Below, in pieces: positions 1,020-62,100 of a stretch of 64,000 nucleotides of DNA (positions are counted from its first letter, which is position 1; the number at the start of each line of letters is the position of its first letter). The stretch covers positions 75,640,001 through 75,704,000 of the forward strand of contig OZ024741.1 in NCBI GenBank assembly GCA_964016885.1, in the 5' to 3' direction. Origin of the DNA: Eledone cirrhosa. Its lineage: Eukaryota. A model generated the notes under the pieces. The model did no database searches, was not told the DNA's origin, and worked only from the letters and a program-made list of their open reading frames with translations. Position numbers and translations under genes: made by a program.

Positions 1020-1294
1020 TCCACTATCCAGTGAATTTCCGACCGATAAGGTATGATTTTCATGGGTACGTCTTTATTTATAAAACAAACTTTGTATTTT
1101 ATCTGATGAAAGCGCACCAAGGTTTGCTTGGTTGCCCTTGAAATATATATAATAAAATAAATATGGTTTTATAAATATAGTTTCCATTTATTTAATATCA
1201 TGGAATATTTACTCCAGTAACTTGTTGAGTGCTCTAAATCAGTTATAAACATTTATGTTTGTCGGACTTCCAACAAATTAAATACAACTTCTAC
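1020..1294 (+). mobile_element. PLE pLTR (family A) with hammerhead ribozyme
   Basis: Homologous to 23746-23943, 57110-57299 and 57560-57830. Contains the HHR, has GAGTGCTC at 1227-1234 and ends in (TA)n. Confidence 0.8.
1095..1159 (+). ncRNA. Minimal type I hammerhead ribozyme
   Basis: tattttat-CTGATGA-aagcgcaccaag/cttggttgccctt-GAAA-tatata-TA-ataaaata. 8-bp stem I, palindromic stem III ATATATAT, AUA cleavage triplet. Confidence 0.8.
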
Positions 1295-1313
1295 ATATAT
1301 ATATATATATATA

Positions 1314-2741
1314 TCATCATCATCATCATCATCATCGTTTAACGTCCGTGTTCCATGCTTGCATGGGTTTGGACGGAGGGTTTTCCCACTTGAGGCAAGA
1401 GTGGTTATCTTGCTCGCATAGGACTATCTGGCGGGTTTTCTACAGCTGGATGCCCTTCCTAACACCAACCACATTTACAGTGTGGGACTGGGAGGTTTTT
1501 ACCGTGTTACCTACACGACCACATTACAGCGTGAACTGTGTGTTTTTTTGACGTGACACCTACACGATCTCATTTGTTTCGGGCTGGATGTTGTGGCACC
1601 AACATAACTTTACATTGAAAGGGGCGGTGTGGATGGGGTGGGGGTGGTGGGACGGGGGTGTATTTTGTTAGAGATGCCTACTGACTGTAGTAGGTTTTAC
1701 TTTGTATTTAGGTAAGGCGGGTCTTCTCTATTACTGAGTACCGCCAAAGGTCTCGGTCCAGTGACATTGTCTTGGTGAGGTGTAAGTGTGTGAGGTCGGA
1801 ATTTATCAGCTCATCCCAGGTTTTTCTGGGTCTGCCTATTCCGTGGCTACCGTCTATCTTTATTGCCCTGCACTTTGTTATACAGCTATCGTCCTTCATG
1901 CGCATCACGTTACCATACCAACGTAGCCTTCTCTCGAGTAAACAACATCTGATCTCTCTTATTTCTAATTTTTTCCTTAGTTCGTTTATGCTTTGCCGTT
2001 CACGTATATTACTATTACACATCCAGCGGAGCATGCAAGCTTCGTTTCTCTCTAGTCTGCGTATATCCTCTGCACACAATGCCCAGGTCTCACTGCCATG
2101 CAACATTGCTGTTCGTATGCAGGCATCGTACAACCTGCCTTTCATTTTTAGGGAGAACCCTTTAGCGGCTAATAGTGGTATGAGCTCTCTGAACTTTTTC
2201 CACCCAGTTCTGACTCTAGCTACTGTACTTTCAGAGCACCCTCCCCCACTGCTGATTTTGTCACCCAGGTAACGGAAGCTGTCCACTATTTCTATAGAAC
2301 CCTCTGCGCAGTTGAAAGAGCTAGTATTTTGTGGGCACTTGCTGCTACTTATTGCCCCAGAACACCGGCCACATGTAAAATCTATGTTCTTAGTTAGCTT
2401 ACCTGTGATCCCACTACATCTTTTATGCACCCAAACTTTGCATTTGGGACACAAAATGGAGTTTCTACCTACGCCTTTCCTACACTCTGAGCATGGCCAC
2501 TTCCCGGAGGGGACCGCCGCCTTATTTTCTTTCTTACAAACTAGAACTTTAGTCTTAGCCAGGTTAATTTTAAGGCCTTTTGATTCTAGGCCGTGCTTCC
2601 ATGTTTGGAATTTCTTCTCTAGCTCGGCCATTGTTTCAGCTATGAGCGTTAGATCATCTGCGTATAGGAGTTCCCATGGGCAGCCGGTCTTGAACTCCAC
2701 TGTTATAGCCTGGAGGGCAATAATAAATAGTAGGGGGCTAA
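1314..2741 (-). mobile_element. RTE-clade LINE (family 1), 5'-truncated
   Basis: ORF 1708-2741 has LSPLLF..LLYADD..PHD-like finger..RRLRWYG. (CAT)n on + is the (GAT)n tail. Both ends abut (TA)n. Confidence 0.95.
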
Positions 2742-3124
2742 GATATATATATATATATATGCATATAGGTGTGTGTATATAAATACATATAGAGATAGCA
2801 TACATAGATGCACCTATTTTGCCACTGTGATTGGCAAATTGCAAATTGCATTTATTAGTGCAGTCTGTACTTGCAGAACCCTGGGTCTGAGGCAGAACCA
2901 TATGCAACCATTCCATTACAAATATACATTTTGTTAGCACTGCGGGAAGTTAGCTCGCTTATATGTTCAAACCATATCATTGAGTGGGTAATTGTGAGCA
3001 ATCGAGATGATAGCGAATATATTTCCTATAACCTCACTACTTAGACTGTTTTTTCTCCCACTTTACAGAACAGCTGGAAATGTGAGTAAATGGTATTATC
3101 ATTATTATAATATTATAATATCCA

Positions 3125-3312
3125 GGCGGTGGATTGGCAGTATCGGTAGAGGGTCGGACACCATGCTTTGAAGTATAGAGTTACCTCCCTGTATGATCTG
3201 AGTTCAAATCCCGCCGAGGTTAACTTTGCCTTTCATCCTTACGGGGTTGATAAAATGAAGTACCAGTAATGCACTGGATAATTGCTGGCCTTGTGCCAAA
3301 AAGTAGAAACAA
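3125..3312 (+). mobile_element. tRNA-derived SINE (Meta-domain-like)
   Basis: Box B gagttcaaatccc followed by gccgaggttaactttgcctttcatccttacggggttgataaaa..gtacc and an (ATT)n tail. Other copies at 15377, 19592, 30392 and 49190. Confidence 0.85.
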
Positions 3313-3564
3313 TTATTATAATATCTTCATATTCCTTTGAAATTCTTTTTTTTTTTTTTTTAACTGGCTGAGATCTATAACAGCAATTAATTCAAAATAT
3401 ATTTCATTTTGATTTTGCTGCCAGCACAGTCCCTAGGCAAACAACAAGTCATTCTTCCATGCCTGACGTCACTATTTGCTGCCAATGGCCATAGCCATTG
3501 TAGTAGTAATTTCTCAGTGCTCAGACTGGACAGATCACTTTGCATCATTTTCTGTTTTAGTTCT

Positions 3565-3687
3565 ATCCGCTGATGAAGCAATGCAGGGATGGCACGCATA
3601 GACACACCTATTCTGCCACTGTGATAAGCAAATTACAAATTGCATTTGTCAATGCAGTCAGAACTTGGAGAAACCCTGGGTCCAGGT
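3565..3687 (+). ncRNA. Hammerhead ribozyme with ~93-nt branched stem II
   Basis: atccg-CTGATGA(3570-76)-agcaa..[two internal hairpins]..ttgga-GAAA(3670-73)-ccctggg-TC-caggt. The upstream repeat copy reads ttgca-GAA-ccctggg-TC, supporting a gcaa/ttgc stem II base. Confidence 0.65.
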
Positions 3688-3842
3688 CTGAACAATGTGC
3701 AACTGCTCCATTACAAATATACATTTTGTTAGCACTCTGAGAGAAGTTAGCTCGCTTATATGTTCAAACTATATCTCACGGAGTGAGCAATCGAGATTAT
3801 AGCTAATATATTTCCTATAACCTCCCTACTTAAACTATATGC

Positions 3843-3878
<36 letters not shown>

Positions 3879-3879
<1 letters not shown>

Positions 3880-5628
3880 AAGTAATAGCGCAACTAATCA
3901 GAGAGAGAATTGACCTAGATGAAATGCAGTTCGGGTTTGTGTCAGGCAAAAGTACCACAGACGCTCTTTTCATAGTACGACAACTACAGGAGAAGTACCT
4001 AGCTAAAGGTAAACCCCTCTACTTAGCTTTTGTCGACTTGGAGAAAGCCTTCGACAGAGTCCCCCGCTCCATTATCTGGTGGGCTCTTAGAAAACTAGGC
4101 GTTGACGAATGGCTTGTGAGGGCTATACAAGCCATGTATAAAGAAACAGTCAGCAAGGTTAGAATTAACAACGAATATAGTGAAGAGTTTAGCGTAAAAG
4201 TTGGCGTCCATCAAGGCTCTGTTCTCAGCCCCCTACTATTTATTATTGCCCTTCAGGCTATAACAGAGGAGTTCAAGACAGGCTGCCCATGGGAACTCCT
4301 ATACGCAGACGACCTGACACTCATAGCGGAATCAATGGCCGAGCTAGAGAAGAAATTCCAAACATGGAAGCACGGCCTAGAGTCAAAAGGACTTAAAATT
4401 AACCTGGCTAAGACCAAAGTTCTAGTTTGTAGGAAAGAAAACAAGGCGGCGGTCCCTTCTGGGAAATGGTCGTGCTCGGTGTGTAGGAAAGGCGTAGGTA
4501 GAAACTCCATTTTGTGTCCTAAATGCAAAGTATGGGTGCATAAAAGATGTAGTGGGATCACAGGTAAGCTAACTAAGAACATAGATTTTACATGTGGCCG
4601 GTGTTCTGGTGCAATAAGTAGCAGCAAGTGCCCACACAATACTAGCTCTTTCAATTGCGCAGAGGGTTCTATAGAAATAGTGGACAGCTTCCGTTACCTG
4701 GGCGATAAAATCAGCAGTGGGGGAGGGTGCTCTGAAAGTACTGTAGCTAGAGTCAGAACTGGTTGGAAAAAGTTCAGAGAGCTTATACCACTATTAGCTG
4801 CTAAAGGGTTCTCCCTAAAAATGAAAGGCAGGTTGTACGATGCCTGCATACGAACAGCAATGTTGCATGGCAGTGAGACCTGGGCATTGTGTGCAGAGGA
4901 TATACGCAGACTAGAGAGGAACGAAGCTTGCATGCTCCGCTGGATGTGTAACAGTAATATACGTGAACGGCAAAGCATAAACGAACTAAGGAAAAAATTA
5001 GAGATAAGAGGGATCAGATGTTGTTTACTCGAGAGAAGGCTACGTTGGTATGGACACGTGATGCGCATGAAAGTCGATAGCTGTATAACAAAGTGCAGGG
5101 CAATAAAGATAGACGGTAGCCACGGAATAGGCAGACCTAGAAAAACCTGGGACGAGCTGATAAACTCCGACCTCACACACTTACACCTCTCCAAGACAAT
5201 GTCACTGGACCGAGACCTTTGGCGGTACTCAGTAACAGAGAAGACCCGCCTTGCCAGTAGGCATCTCTAACAAAATACACCCCGTCCCACCACCACCACC
5301 CCCACCCCATCCACACCACCCCGTCCTATGTAAAGTTATGTTGGTGCCGCGCCATCCGGGCCGAAACAAATGAGATCGTGTAGGTGTCACGACAAAAAAA
5401 CACACAGTCCACGCTGTAATGTGGCCGTGTAGGCAACACGGTAAAAACCTCCCAGACCCACACTGTAAATGTGGTTGGTGTTAGGAAGGGCATCCAACTG
5501 TAGAAAACCTGCCAGACAGTCCTATGCGAGCAAGACAATCACTCTTGCCTCAAGTGGGACTACCCCCGTCCAAACCCATGCAAGCGTGGAACACGGACGT
5601 TAAACGTTGATGATGATGATGATGATGA

Positions 5629-22721: not shown

Positions 22722-23732
22722 ATAATAATAAGTTGACGAAACCAGCATGGGTTGCATCTCAGTGTAATCAATAAGTAATGTTAAATAAACTCCCAGAGTA
22801 GACACATAGTTATTCGCTTCAATACAATGCACGTAAATGGATACCTTCAATTATTACCTGTACTCGAGTTTCAGCCACACTTAATGCAGCAATAGAGTGC
22901 ACAGCACCCACTGTCCGCATTTATCATACAATAATGCACAATCAGCACATGTGCTTCATCAGCGGGCTTGACCTAATCAATAACCAATCGATCGACAGAA
23001 TTCAATTCCAGTCCATGTCGGCTATGACTGTATGTGACACCCAACACAGTAAAACATTAGCAACTGAAATCTCTACACATCATCACAATGCTGTCCCCCA
23101 ATTGGCTACCAATTCAGAAATTTACGTGATGGCAGGAGACAAAATTCAAATAGTTCCGCTCCTGCCATAAGCACTCAGTCTACGTATCTCAAACACAAAT
23201 TAACAAGTGAGTGAAAAATTGGTTATTAGAAAAATTCGGTCTCCAATCGCTGTACAATAGAATAGTAGCATTCAGCTCTAGTCTCCAAGTCCCATGGCGA
23301 GAAATAGTGCGACAGTAATAATGGTAGTGCCTAAAACCTTTCCAGACATTAAATGTAACCGGCGATTAGACAGCGATATAGAGTTAGCACGCTGGTTAGA
23401 GTTTGAAATCTAGATATTTCGACCAGCCACGTGCATAAACCAGTTAATTTCACAACTTGTACGATTCAATAGGTGAGTGAGAGAGAAATTTATAACAGGT
23501 ATTAGAGCGTATATTAAACAAAACACAATAAAAAATGTGAAAAATTTCTCAACTTACTCTCATTGTTAATCTGCTTGTTGGGAGAAAATAATAATAAGTT
23601 GATCGAACCAGCACGGGTTTCACTGCTAGGACCGGTTGCATCGCAGCATACTCAATAGGTAATATTAAACAAACACCCAGAGTAGACACATAGTTATTCA
23701 TTTCAATACAATGCACGTAAATGGGTACCTTC
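22722..23732 (-). mobile_element. Non-coding direct-repeat-flanked PLE/retrozyme-like element II with expanded HHR
   Basis: Direct repeats at 22722-22848 and 23588-23732 (period ~884 nt). HHR at 22856-22967 lies just upstream of the 3' repeat. No sense-strand ORF. (TA)n on both sides. Confidence 0.75.
22856..22967 (-). ncRNA. Hammerhead ribozyme with ~83-nt branched stem II
   Basis: gcccg-CTGATGA-agcaca..[hairpins gcattat/ataaatgc and gggtgc/gcactc]..tgtggct-GAAA-ctcgag-TA-caggt. Palindromic stem III ACTCGAGT, GUA cleavage triplet. Confidence 0.75.
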
Positions 23733-23745
23733 TATATATATATAT

Positions 23746-23940
23746 ATCAATGATATTAAATAAATGGAAACTATATTTACAAAACCATATTTATTCTATT
23801 ATATATATTTCAAGGGTCCCCAAATTTTGGTACGCTATCATCAGATAACATATTATACTCCAGAAAACTTGTCGAGTGCTCTGAATCAGTTATAAAAATT
23901 TATATTTGTTGAATTACCAACAAATTGAATATCCCTTCTG

Positions 23941-23943
<3 letters not shown>
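23746..23943 (+). mobile_element. Family A insert: inverted HHR arm fused directly to a sense tail
   Basis: 23746-23848 is the reverse complement of the 1098-1202 homolog. 23849-23943 is the sense homolog of 1205-1294 with GAGTGCTC at 23874-81. Confidence 0.75.
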
Positions 23944-23980
<37 letters not shown>

Positions 23981-32234: not shown

Positions 32235-32304
<70 letters not shown>

Positions 32305-32308
<4 letters not shown>

Positions 32309-32628
32309 AAAGAACACAAGAGCATCTACAACATCAAACATTTTTTATTGGCTTACAATGTTTCTTCTTTACGTAACCGTAGGATTCTTCAGAGCTATAA
32401 AAGGGGTTTTATTGGTGTTATGGACTCTACCCTTTTATAGCTCTGAAGAATCCTACGGTTACGTAAGGAAGAAACATTGTAAGCCAATAAAAAATTGTTG
32501 ATGTTGTAGACGCTCTTGTGTTCTTTATCATATATATGGCTCTGCTCCAAAGCATTGAGCTAATTATTATACTGCCAATACTTTAATGGGACACGGGTAT
32601 ACAATACCTAACTCCTATTAACCTAAGT
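32305..32628 (+). mobile_element. Hairpin+tail PLE insert (family I) with an HHR in both arms
   Basis: ~100-bp arms at 32305-32405 / 32430-32531. gct-CTGAAGA(32443-49)-atcctacg-gtta-cgtaaggaa-GAAA-cattg-TA-agc. Confidence 0.85.
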
Positions 32629-34773: not shown

Positions 34774-35256
34774 TATATATACATATATATATATGTTTTG
34801 AACAATGAAAATAAAACAAAGATAGATGCTTAATTAGTTTATTGTTTTACAATCATTTCAGAATGTTGATTGATTATAATAAATTGAGACGGTGCCTTAT
34901 TGATAGTGGTTGTACCACTACATATTACTAGTCTCGATATTCTAGATCAAATTCACCATCTTCCTTAGAAACAATGAACTATAATCATTATTTGGAAGCT
35001 GTATAAGGAGACTGAAAGGCACCACAACTGGATATGTGGATTAATAAAAATAAATAAGGGATAAAAGATAAAAATAAATATTAGGATTCACAATCAAAGA
35101 TGAAGAAATACAAGTGGAAAAAAAAAACAAATACAAAAATTTATAGTAGAAAAAAAAATAACAATAATAAGCAGAAAAAAATAAAATAAAAACATAAACA
35201 ATACTATGACGAATGAGAGGAAAATTAAATCATCAAAAGAGAACCAGTAAAGAATA

Positions 35257-35470
35257 TATTAGCAGACTGGTTGATCAGTCAGATCTGCATATTAAAAAAA
35301 TTTTCTTTTTTATTTGAATTTGGCAAAGCCAGCCATTGATCGCTCGTATACAGGAAATTGACTGGCCAGTCTGCTGATATGCAAATCTGGCTGATCAGTG
35401 GATCTGCTAATATGCAGATCTGACTGATCAGCCAGTCTGCTAATATACAAATCAGGCCGATCAGTCACTG
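35257..35470. repeat. 33-bp minisatellite (3-4 units) with one inverted unit upstream
   Basis: tgatcagccagtctgctaatatgcagatctgac units at 35360-35470. 35257-35293 is the reverse complement. Confidence 0.8.
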
Positions 35471-35710
35471 TGTATTTTTGAAAATAGCATATATTTTCAC
35501 TAGCTCTGGCAGTTTGGCAGGTGAACAGTGAGCTGTACTGATGAAGGGTGATACCCAGAAACATTAGTGTCTGAAGTTCTGTTCACATGCCAACACAAGA
35601 GCAAGAATGAAGTGTTCATTCTACTGACATGGCTATAAAATTGAGGTTTGTTTGCATAATTGCAAACAAATCAAATGTTATTATTAATATTCGAAAAACG
35701 CAGATTACAT

Positions 35711-35769
<59 letters not shown>

Positions 35770-48440: not shown

Positions 48441-48783
48441 GGAGGCACATGGCTTAGTGGTTAGAGCATTGGTCTTGCAATCGAAAGGTTGTGAGTTCAA
48501 TTCTCAGACCGGGTGATGTGTTTTTTCCTTGAGCAAGACACTTTATTTCACATTGCTCCAGTTTACTCAGCTGTAGAAATGAGATGATAGGGACTGGGGT
48601 CCCTATCATTCCACTGCAAAGTGGTCGTGGAGGTGCCACGGCAAAAAAGTACCCAGCACTCACTGTAAATGAGGTTGGTGTTAGGAAGGGCATCCAGCTG
48701 TAGAAATCAAGCCAGAATCAGTTCCCGTCCCACCCTTGCAAGCAGGGAAAAATGGACGTAAAATGATGATGATGATGATGATG

Positions 48784-57561: not shown

Positions 57562-57830
57562 AAAGTTCTATTTAAAATTGTTGGGATACAACAAGTAAAT
57601 ATTTTTATAACTGATATAAAGCACTCGACAAGTATTTGGAGTAGATATACGATATTAATAAATGGAAACTATATTTATAAAACCATATTTATTTCATTAT
57701 ACATATTTCAGGGATACCAAATTAAATTATGGTATGCCTTCATCAGACAAAATACAATATATAACAGTTTTACAAATAAGCTTTGACGTACCCTATTAAA
57801 ATGCAACCATTGTTTTTGGAAGTCATCCGG
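57560..57830 (-). mobile_element. Family A pLTR with complete HHR (57690-57754)
   Basis: tattttgt-CTGATGA-aggcatacca/tggtatccct-GAAA-tatgta-TA-atgaaata. Tail has tcGAGTGCTT. Confidence 0.8.
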
Positions 57831-59159: not shown

Positions 59160-62100
59160 TCATCATCATCATCATCATGGTGGGACGGGGTGTATTTTGT
59201 TAGAGATGCCTACTGGCTGTAGTAGGTTTTACTATGTATTTAGGTAAGGCGGGTCTTCTCTGTTACTGAGTACCGCCAAAGGTCTCGGTCCAGTGACATT
59301 GTCTTGGAGAGGTGTAAGTGTGTGAGGTCGGAGTTTATCAGCTCGTCCCAGGTTTTTCTAGGTCTGCCTATTCCGTGGCTACCGTCTATCTTTATTGCCC
59401 TGCACTTTGTTATACAGCTATCGACTTTCATGCGCATCACGTGTCCATACCAACGTAGCCTTCTCTCGAGTAAACAACATCTGATCCCTCTTATTTCTAA
59501 TTTTTTCCTTAGTTCGTTTATGCTTTGCCGTTCACGTATATTACTATTACACATCCAGCGGAGCATGCAAGCTTCGTTTCTCTCCATTCTGCGTATATCC
59601 TCTGCACACAATGCCCAGGTCTCACTGCCATGCAACATTGCTGTTCGTATGCAGGCATCGTACAACCTGCCTTTCATTTTTAGGGAGAACCCTTTAGCAG
59701 CTAATAGTGGTATAAGCTCTCTGAACTTTTTCCAACCAGTTCTGACTCTAGCTACTGTACTTTCAGAGCACCCTCCCCCACTGCTGATTTTATCGCCCAG
59801 GTAACGGAAGCTGTCCACTATTTCTATAGAACCCTCTGCGCAATTGAAAGAGCTAGTATTTTGTGAGCACTTGCTGCTACTTATTGCACCAGAGCACCGG
59901 CCACATGTAAAATCTATGTTCTTAGTTAGCTTACCTGTGATCCCACTACATCTTTTATGCACCCATACTTTGCATTTAGGACATAAAATGGAGTTTCTAC
60001 CTACGCCTTTCCCACACACCGAGCACGACCATTTCCCAGAAGGGACCGCCGCCTTATTTTCTTTCCTACAAACTAGAACTTTAGTCTTAGCCAGGTTAAT
60101 TTTAAGTCCTTTTGATTCTAGGCCGTGCTTCCATGTTTGGAATTTCTTCTCTAGCTCGGCCATTGATTCCGCTATGAGTGTCAGGTCGTCTGCATATAGG
60201 AGTTCCCATGGGCAGCCGGTCTTGAACTCCTCTGTTATAGCCTGAAGGGAAATAATAAATAGTAGGGGGCTGAGAACAGAGCCCTGATGGACGCCAACTT
60301 TTACGCTAAACTCTTCACTATATTCGTTGTTAATTCTAACCTTGCTGACTGTTTCTTTATACATGGCTTGTATAGCCCTCACAAGCCATTCGTCAACGCC
60401 TAGTTTTCTAAGAGCCCACCAGATAATGGAGCGGGGGACTCTGTCGAAGGCTTTCTCCAAGTCGACAAAAGCTAAGTAGAGGGGTTTACTTTTAGCTAGG
60501 TACTTCTCCTGTAGTTGTCGTACAATGAAAAGAGCGTCTGTGGTACTTTTGCCAGACACAAACCCGAACTGCATTTCATCTAGGTCAATTCTCTCTCTGA
60601 TTAGTTGCGCTATTACTTTTTCCGTGACCTTCATGACCTGGTCGATTAATTTAATGCCTCTATAGTTACTCCTATCTAGGGCGTCTCCTTTACCCTTATA
60701 ACAGTTAACGATGATGCTGCTGCGCCAGTCCTTCGGAACAACCCCATTCTGTACGACTTGGTTAACTATGCGGGTGACCATGGTGTGTCCCACCGTGCCA
60801 GATGCCTTCAGCATCTCAGCAACTATTTCCGAAGGCCCAGCCGCCTTACCCGTCTTCATATCCTTGATTGCCTTACTTATTATACTCCCCTCGACTAACA
60901 CTGCTGGTCCCTCTATTGGGTCGATATGGGGGAGACCGTCTTTCTCCCATTTATTCTCCTCATTTAGTAGCCTTTCATAGTGACACTTCCAAGCTACCTT
61001 CTTATCAGCGTCGGTGATGGCAAGTATGCCATCATCGTTAAGTACACACTTCTCCCCGACAATATCACGGTTTTCCTTGACGCATTGCCTAGCAATCCTG
61101 AACACCTCACGTTTTTGGTCCTCGCGTTGTAGAACATGCTTGAACTTTCTTTCCTCTGCTTCCCTTCTTGCTAAGTACACTTGTCTCCTAGCTTCTCTCC
61201 TGGCCACTTGATAGTCTTCTCTACTTCCCCCATCCCGCCATACTTTCCAAGCCTGCTTTTTGGCCTTAATTGACCCCTCCACCTTACTGTTCCACCACCA
61301 TGTTACTCTCCTCCTGCCTACAGGCCTGCTCCAGCCACAGACTTCGTCTGTCGCCATCAGCAGGTTTGCTTTCAGAAATTCCCACTCTCCCTCTATATTG
61401 TCCGACTCTAAATGTTCTTCCTTACTGTCGAAAGCATCAAGTAATATGCTTTGAAATTTATTTCTGGCTGTGGGGTCCTTTAGCTTCCATATTTTTCTCC
61501 TGAAGATAGTCCTCTTCTGCTGTCGAGTACGTCTCGTCCTGACTATGAGGTCGCTAATTATCAGTCTATGTTGGGAGGTGCATTCTTCATGGGGGAGGGA
61601 TTTAGTGTTTACAACAGACACTCTGTCACGTCTTCTGGTAAGGATATAATCTACCTGGCTTGTGTGTTCCCTGGATCTATAGGTGATCAGGTGATTGTCA
61701 CGTTTTTTGAAGTTAGTGTTACAGATAGTTAGGTTATTTGCATCACAGAATTCCAGGATTCTGGAGCCTTCCTCATTTCTAGTACCAAATCCATAGCCTC
61801 CATGGATTTCGTCGTAGCCGTCACAATGTTGTCCAACGTGACCATTTAGGTCGCCTGCAATAATTATATAGTCACTGTCGGATATTTTGGAGGTAGTTAG
61901 CATCAGTGTCTCATAGAATCTGTCTTTTATAGTGCCGGGCAGTCCGGATTGGGGTGCGTACGCAGATATTACTGTCACTGTAGTTCTATTGAGGACAAGT
62001 CGTATTTTAATTATTCTGTCGTTCACTCTATTTACGTCTATTATCTTATCTGCCCACTTTTCTGCTACCATGATTCCTACTCCACCCAGCCCATCGTCGT

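Follow-up and report, generated by a model that had tools for sequence, protein, structure and literature searches.

The question of why Penelope-like retrotransposons (PLEs) keep introns through retrotransposition bears on several described systems, which are summarized here from the accessible parts of the cited papers. Penelope has a 75-nt intron in its 5' UTR (PMC8557442, PMC2377424), which is removed in most transcripts and is required for reporter expression (PMC2377424). In Drosophila virilis, this intron ends at helix I of a hammerhead, and the hammerheads are of the dimer type (PMC4209133). A 398-nt 5' UTR intron with long-read support is known from Chlamys-3_cRei; its 5' end is in the pLTR, and it extends across the boundary with the body (PMC8557442). 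An antisense or unspliced template has been proposed for intron retention in PLEs (PMC3846280). Several PLE clades target (TA)n microsatellites for insertion (PMC8557442). For a Poseidon PLE, the internal start of reverse transcription (RT) coincides in vitro with the ends of genomic insertions and lies in an AC-rich stem-loop, and a protein-binding region of the PLE surrounds this start (PMC11167929). Retrozymes are described as derivatives of PLEs (PMC7229834; bioRxiv 10.64898/2026.07.22.740005). The significance of intron retention in PLEs has been stated to be unknown (PMC8557442).

Two hammerhead-bearing elements

The window, which is the whole stretch of 64,000 nucleotides (64 kb) that was analysed, contains two PLE-like units. 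Element I (2791–3836, plus strand) is non-coding and, from self-match and family alignment, consists of a 5'-truncated 3'-end copy (2791–3047), a full unit to about 3836, and then (TA)n; the self-match between 2791–3047 and 3585–3836 has 82% identity. Element II (22728–23735, minus strand) consists of a 5'-truncated repeat copy (23735–23594), a unit of about 870 nt that ends at CAACTTAT (22735–22728), and then (TA)n. A later SINE-like insert at 3112–3322 (plus strand), with an 11-nt target duplication (3101–3111/3312–3322), lies in the window copy and does not belong to the family. The initial annotation called both families retrozyme-like; their pLTR layout, hammerhead motif and (TA)n ends support their being non-coding, hammerhead-bearing PLE derivatives. 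A partial-tandem direct repeat (pLTR) is found in copies of families I and II and of a subfamily designated IIb; its 5' truncation varies, whereas its 3' end is fixed. A TA repeat lies within 22 nt of the repeat end at 13/27 ends in II, 26/47 in IIb and 6/17 in I, and most of the other ends are tandem junctions. Tandem extent is mostly 1.1–1.5 units, and at least one copy (L204) has a pair of hammerhead 3' strands separated by 844 nt. The unit length is about 550 nt in family I (70–77% identical to the window copy) and about 870–890 nt in family II (80% identical among themselves), with IIb inside the 840–890 nt range of II/IIb.

The hammerhead motif in I and II is of type I, with an 80–90 nt insertion in helix II and a short palindromic helix III. 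In element I (3555–3682, plus strand) the region includes an AG at 3559–3560, the core CTGATGA at 3570–3576, the long helix II insertion, GAAA at 3670–3673 and a predicted cleavage triplet, GTC, at 3680–3682. The equivalent region of element II (22861–22974, minus strand) has an AG at 22974–22973, the core at 22962–22956, the long helix II insertion, GAAA at 22872–22869 and a predicted cleavage triplet, GTA, at 22863–22861. By a strict script, core and helices I–III are intact in 4/20 copies of II, 12/26 of IIb and 2/33 of I; that few I and II copies pass this fold test is expected of decayed copies. G-C/A-U exchange occurs among copies in helix II, and Rfam gave no hammerhead hit for element I or II. 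I and II are old, decayed non-coding PLE families. Many RT+GIY-YIG elements are present in the genome, and no DNA shared with an autonomous partner of this kind was found between I/II and 50 GIY-YIG loci (150 of 10596 candidates scored).

Other repeats accompany the two elements. Young RT-like LINE copies, 93–98% identical, occur at window positions 3879–5255, 1711–2743, 59243–60619 and elsewhere; one is inserted where the (TA)n of element I ends, and another, in the opposite direction, lies just upstream of the element. Family III, a hammerhead-like repeat that ends in (TA)n, is found at 1103–1296 (plus), at 23852–23739 (minus, with an inverted piece at 23850–23947) and at 57802–57553 (minus). 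One of its copies sits directly 5' of element II, and no tandem junction was seen among the fetched family III loci. At 32298–32626, two copies of a fourth hammerhead-like repeat (core CTGAAGA, (TA)n end) form a head-to-head inverted pair with 96% identity over 108 nt, which is a typical PLE inverted arrangement. A weak tRNA match (30.5 bits) at 48450–48507 is probably the head of a tRNA-derived SINE.

A 13-nt exon-like module beside the repeat end

An identically spaced 13-nt micro-exon had been claimed for both elements. Both module strings are present with no mismatches, at 3051–3087 (plus) and 23588–23552 (minus), and comparison of the letters verifies the same spacing in each: a common 10-mer, N5, CAG, 13 nt and GTRAGT. 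In element I, the acceptor-like site at 3051–3068 (plus; TTTTCTCCCA tract and CAG) lies immediately 3' of the repeat end, followed by the candidate micro-exon at 3069–3081 and donor-like site 2, GTGAGT, at 3082–3087. In element II, the acceptor-like site (TTTTCTCCCA tract and CAG) is at 23571–23588 (minus), the candidate micro-exon, with an ATG inside it, at 23558–23570 and donor-like site 2, GTAAGT, at 23552–23557. In both families the module begins immediately 3' of the fixed repeat 3' end. It has the marks of a micro-exon: a YAG acceptor with a pyrimidine tract, an exon within 3–27 nt and a GTRAGT donor. On an approximate splice-site matrix that serves for ranking only, donor 2 is the top-scoring donor of all three units (family-wide GT sites: 22 in I, 68 in II and 57 in IIb), and the module acceptor ranks first among 28 family-wide AG sites in I and 44 in II.

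The module pattern has only two matches in the window, elements I and II, even when up to three mismatches are allowed; the mean for shuffled windows at that tolerance is 0.03, and the shared 10-mer occurs in the same two places only. Exact matches to a 35-place version of the pattern number 38 in the element's own genome (3.0 Gb), compared to 0 for a reversed control. Thirty of these loci were fetched and belong to family I (7) or family II (23), and the remaining eight are family II-like, judged by their letters. A scan for further families had been suggested: the pattern recurs in copies of I and II, but no third family with the exact 10-mer-to-donor spacing was found, also with a looser genome pattern (43 matches, 41 of them I- or II-like; control 4). 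Neither the 10-mer nor the CAG is invariant, because subfamily IIb deviates at both. Three related, protein-free lineages with hammerhead motifs (I, II and IIb) keep acceptor-like and donor-like sites exactly 13 nt apart beside the insertion end.

Conservation of motif and spacing among family members, on which the earlier claim had been made to depend, is confirmed. AG-13-GT is intact in 13/18 copies of I and 22/29 of II, after exclusion of copies that were known only from the pattern or did not span the site (2 of 20 family I and 16 of 45 family II copies); these fractions lean somewhat high because two of the DNA queries used to gather copies held the module. The exact 8-mer TTCTCCCA is present in 9/18 copies of I and 19/29 of II. 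In family I, variants common to several copies affect 3 of 17 signal columns but 34 of the 73 columns outside the signals (Fisher p = 0.025). The whole module of family II is free of shared variants, exon and spacer columns included, so that a signal-specific effect is confined to family I. A profile comparison of I with II yields only weak cross-matches, in two places: the module (best E 0.003) and one patch of the body. When the two families are aligned jointly, colinear blocks (TGAGTA, GCAACCG, ACT, TTTTTCTCCCA, CAGA and GT-AGT) extend across about 110 nt near the repeat end; the splice-like signals agree, but neither the interior of the exon nor the remainder of the units does. Homology over these 110 nt means that the shared module was inherited by common descent and is not an independent coincidence. 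An ATG lies inside the exon or across its end in 12/18 copies of I and 24/29 of II. It shifts between I and II in the aligned copies and is absent from 11/29 copies of IIb, and a conserved peptide from a spliced product was rejected on these grounds.

A compensating shift in subfamily IIb

Subfamily IIb was found through a motif with 422 genomic matches and is more abundant than I or II. It is a younger subfamily, with 87% identity within and 70% to II. Its module was counted in 29 copies, from 30 loci with one wrongly oriented locus left out. The site reads TATCTCCCA-AC-TAG-13 nt-GTAAGT; TAG is present in 27/29 copies, the 13-nt spacing in 29/29, GT in 28/29, and all three in 26/29. At the old CAG position IIb has CGG in 19 copies, CAG in five, TGG in three and other triplets in two, and the CAG and TGG forms are probably the expected products of CpG decay from CGG. 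With family I as outgroup, IIb has lost 3 nt of exon together with the CAG, and a TAG further upstream restores the 13 nt. Among 19 indels between II and IIb, 15 are of 1 nt and the exon loss is the only one of 3 nt, against a background of 18% substitutions; a rough, post hoc chance estimate is 1 in 20–50. The compensating shift suggests selection on the 13-nt spacing. IIb also has a weaker pyrimidine tract, its TAG acceptor ranks 5/35 on the rough matrix, and between II and IIb the module is conserved no better than the average column, all of which would also fit decay.

Pairing could also have kept these letters. The module might be an RNA stem-loop at the RT start, with the donor-like letters conserved by pairing with the repeat end (ACTTA) and not by splicing. 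Family II copies do fold TCAACTTA onto TAAGTTGA, ACT(TA) is common to I and II at the repeat end, and an RT start within a stem-loop is reported for the Poseidon PLE in the accessible part of that work (PMC11167929). Mean folding z values of −0.42 (I, 17 copies), −0.69 (II, 28) and +0.41 (IIb, 26), however, indicate no conserved fold, consensus energies are near zero in I and II, helices differ between lineages, and the 5' arm varies among family I subfamilies in which GTGAGT is constant. We regard this account as very improbable. A conserved hairpin at the module was rejected as a candidate, given that the family II pairing of repeat end with donor is kept in neither I nor IIb.

Candidate introns on both sides of the module

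A search for an upstream donor inside the pLTR had been suggested, and a donor-like site does occur within the repeat, about 80–85 nt 5' of the acceptor. In element I it is GTGGGT at 2984–2989 (plus), the predicted start of intron 1. Most family I copies have GTGAGT there, and GA-GTGAGT gives a predicted intron 1 of 81–88 nt in 10 of 12 measurable copies. The site in element II is weak (GTATGC at 23646–23651, minus; GTACGC in most family II copies) and a second weak candidate lies at 23632–23627 (minus). The family II form, GA-GTACGC, ranks 8/68 and gives a predicted intron 1 of 77–86 nt in 19 copies. Because donor 1 sits inside the repeat, the predicted first intron spans the 3' end of the element, and integrated 3' ends fall between donor 1 and the acceptor, 15–25 nt 5' of the latter. 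Location of the element 3' end inside predicted intron 1 would be a simple reason for the retention of that intron.

Donor 1 is strong in I and weak in II, and II and IIb have two competing acceptors downstream of donor 2. The nearer one in element II (23456–23507, minus) comprises a branch-point-like CTCTAAT (23507–23501), a pyrimidine tract and AAG (23458–23456). In 15/20 copies of II and 17/26 of IIb, an AAG follows a CTRAY motif and a pyrimidine tract; it lies 101–107 nt from donor 2 in II and 89–97 nt in IIb, where it ranks 2/35. A long U-rich tract occurs at a similar distance in family I, without a clear YAG. The farther candidate is the AG that had been noted before the hammerhead, which is present 9 and 10 nt ahead of the CTGATGA cores that start at 3570 and 22962. 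Among copies with a readable core, an AG lies 8–11 nt before it in 11/21 of I, 11/15 of II and 20/20 of IIb (from 33, 20 and 26 copies).

From this AG, the initial annotation drew the idea that almost the whole body is an intron. Intron 2 would then end just before the hammerhead, and splicing and self-cleavage would choose between the full unit and an exon-plus-ribozyme RNA or circle of about 200–250 nt, as a special case of the micro-exon explanation. The frequency of the AG, and its position in the same place in bodies that are otherwise unalignable, are consistent with this idea, as are the pyrimidine run that precedes it in I and its location within a 33-nt block, the second-longest unchanged between II and IIb. 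The D. virilis intron that ends at helix I offers a precedent, as far as the accessible text describes it (PMC4209133). The AG, however, ranks only 9/44 in II and 9/35 in IIb and is outside the top nine in I, the nearer AG with its branch-point-like motif competes with it 89–107 nt after the donor, and its junction is in no genomic copy for the II and IIb patterns searched. Alternatively, the CCAAT-like motifs noticed by eye immediately upstream could belong to a promoter, in which case the AG would be near a start site. With a nearer acceptor available and a low rank for the AG before the hammerhead, a nearly whole-body intron is unproven, and we consider it distinctly unlikely.

By eye, CCAAT-like and TGACGTCA-like motifs occur in the bodies just 5' of the hammerhead, at 23110–22975 (minus) and 3460–3480 (plus). 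The repeats of autonomous elements have similar CCAAT-like and TGACGTCA-like motifs, which may represent an internal promoter.

Junctions of autonomous PLEs and of other families

Four of five autonomous RT+GIY-YIG junctions (L121, L123, L133 and L134, not L135) have a repeat end, then AG, then ATG 5–9 nt on, and the AG is AAG in three of these four. Downstream of one of its two 3' ends, family V, which is non-coding and unrelated to I/II, has TCAG followed by ATG. No GTRAG occurs in the next ~80 nt at the five autonomous junctions or in family V, and none of the 50 GIY-YIG loci proved to be an autonomous parent with a second donor. The acceptor layout is, thus, a common feature of PLE junctions here, and a strong donor 13 nt on is special to the I/II/IIb clade.

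This layout opens a further possibility, that the module is a vestige in which acceptor and ATG represent the end of a 5' UTR intron and the start codon of the parent PLE, with the donor co-inherited or due to chance. The signals would be unspliced and kept by descent or by binding of PLE protein near the RT start. The presence of the layout in four autonomous families and the unrelated family V is in keeping with such an origin, as is the ATG in or across the exon end in I (12/18) and II (24/29). The most abundant lineage, IIb, has the weakest acceptor, and the protein-binding region reported around the Poseidon RT start, in the accessible account, could supply the binding (PMC11167929). A vestige does not readily explain the donor, which has a GTRAG counterpart within ~80 nt at 0/5 autonomous junctions and none in family V, is the best in each unit, and, apart from the R position, is identical in lineages that cannot otherwise be aligned. 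The 13-nt spacing has, in addition, survived the compensating shift in IIb, and the ATG is not fixed: it moves between I and II, and 11/29 IIb copies lack it. We hold a vestige to be a real possibility, although probably not the correct explanation.

Several further features of these elements were observed. Neptune and Poseidon, as names for local PLE families, are our assumption from general features of these clades. L121, L133 and L138/L091 represent three autonomous families with ORFs about 65–77% identical and a common AACCG-GTAA donor-like motif in their repeats. Long open RT+GIY-YIG frames occur in L121 (minus-strand ORF 5322–2509, 938 aa) and L123 (2975–6262, 1096 aa stop to stop); L121-family copies are 96–98% identical, which, with the long open frames, points to recently active PLEs. 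A motif scan found no hammerhead in the L121 repeat. The 3' ends of L121, L123 and L133 fall at YTAAY branch-point-like motifs, which may be plain homology to the TA target. L129 has, at 1397–1441 (plus), an acceptor-like site, 19 nt and GTGAGT, antisense to an L121-family ORF and within its repeat. Family V is a very abundant hammerhead unit of about 400 nt (3090 junction matches; window 35240–35712; loci L236–L265), with two 3' ends about 35–45 nt apart, like a PLE 'tail', and with the acceptor-like TCAG and the ATG between them.

Searches for spliced copies and a proposed role in transposition

Both candidate introns are retained in every genomic copy seen. A genome search for the family II far junction with two mismatches gave 0 hits, the family II intron 1 junction gave one match with two mismatches that is not a family copy, and the near and far junctions of IIb with one mismatch gave 0 hits. 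Predicted splice joints were absent among the contig joints listed for three contig sets from one sample, aligned to element II and a family I copy. Missing processed copies are expected for a PLE and speak neither for nor against splicing. A lariat-circle template was rejected, with acceptor, exon and donor kept in a row at genomic junctions.

The explanation that we favour, and to which we give an even chance of being right, is that the module is a true spliceosomal micro-exon in a two-intron leader that was inherited from a PLE parent and is under selection. The transcript would begin in the repeat copy that lies upstream and pass donor 1; intron 1 (about 80–85 nt) would cover the repeat end, with the 13-nt exon and then donor 2 after it. 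For the end of intron 2 there are two candidate positions, about 90–105 nt downstream (II, IIb) or 9–10 nt before the hammerhead core, and the spliced product would yield no conserved protein. A borrowed PLE protein would begin reverse transcription within intron 1, which would limit the possible templates to RNA in which intron 1 is retained. These short elements encode no protein that could need protection; if the conserved splice signals are useful at all, their use must be to the RNA itself.

An extension of the micro-exon explanation, which we think unlikely, is that splicing gates transposition. The RT start would lie near the branch region of intron 1, spliced RNA could not be copied, and intron retention would follow from this geometry, with a 13-nt exon under length selection setting the share of unspliced or short-ribozyme RNA. 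The unit of about 850 nt would be a small substrate for testing these possibilities, with IIb as a natural mutant. If no splicing occurs, the module would be an ordinary inherited feature of a PLE junction.

Comparison with known systems

Non-LTR retrozymes resemble I and II, as far as the accessible parts of the two sources go (PMC7229834; bioRxiv 10.64898/2026.07.22.740005), in being non-coding, with a type I hammerhead, a short palindromic helix III, dispersed copies, partial tandem structure and low GC. They differ in unit length, which is about 300 nt compared to about 550 nt in I and 840–890 nt in II/IIb. Lineages I, II and IIb are also unlike them in the 80–90 nt helix II insertion, in that no long multimers were seen, and in the splice-like module; the accessible parts of the same sources describe no internal introns or micro-exons for non-LTR retrozymes (PMC7229834; bioRxiv 10.64898/2026.07.22.740005). 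Searches of the openly accessible literature found no report of a micro-exon in retrozymes or non-autonomous PLEs.

The autonomous PLEs L121, L123, L124/L134 and L133, which belong to the same genome and which we take to be Neptune-like, share with I/II the (TA)n 3' end and the succession of repeat end, AG within ~20–55 nt and ATG. In three autonomous families, the repeat contains a donor-like AACCG-GT that is similar to a motif of II. The autonomous PLEs differ from I/II in having neither DNA similarity to them nor a second donor after the ATG.

Chlamys-3_cRei is comparable in its boundary-spanning intron, but it is autonomous, its intron is 398 nt long, and no micro-exon or second donor is described for it in the accessible text (PMC8557442). 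D. virilis Penelope, as portrayed in the accessible parts of its two sources, resembles I and II in a short 5' leader intron that is kept in genomic copies (PMC2377424, PMC4209133). It is autonomous, with one intron shown by RT-PCR, whereas I and II are non-coding and have two candidate introns that flank a candidate 13-nt exon. The end of the Penelope intron at helix I leads to different ribozymes in spliced and unspliced RNA (PMC4209133).
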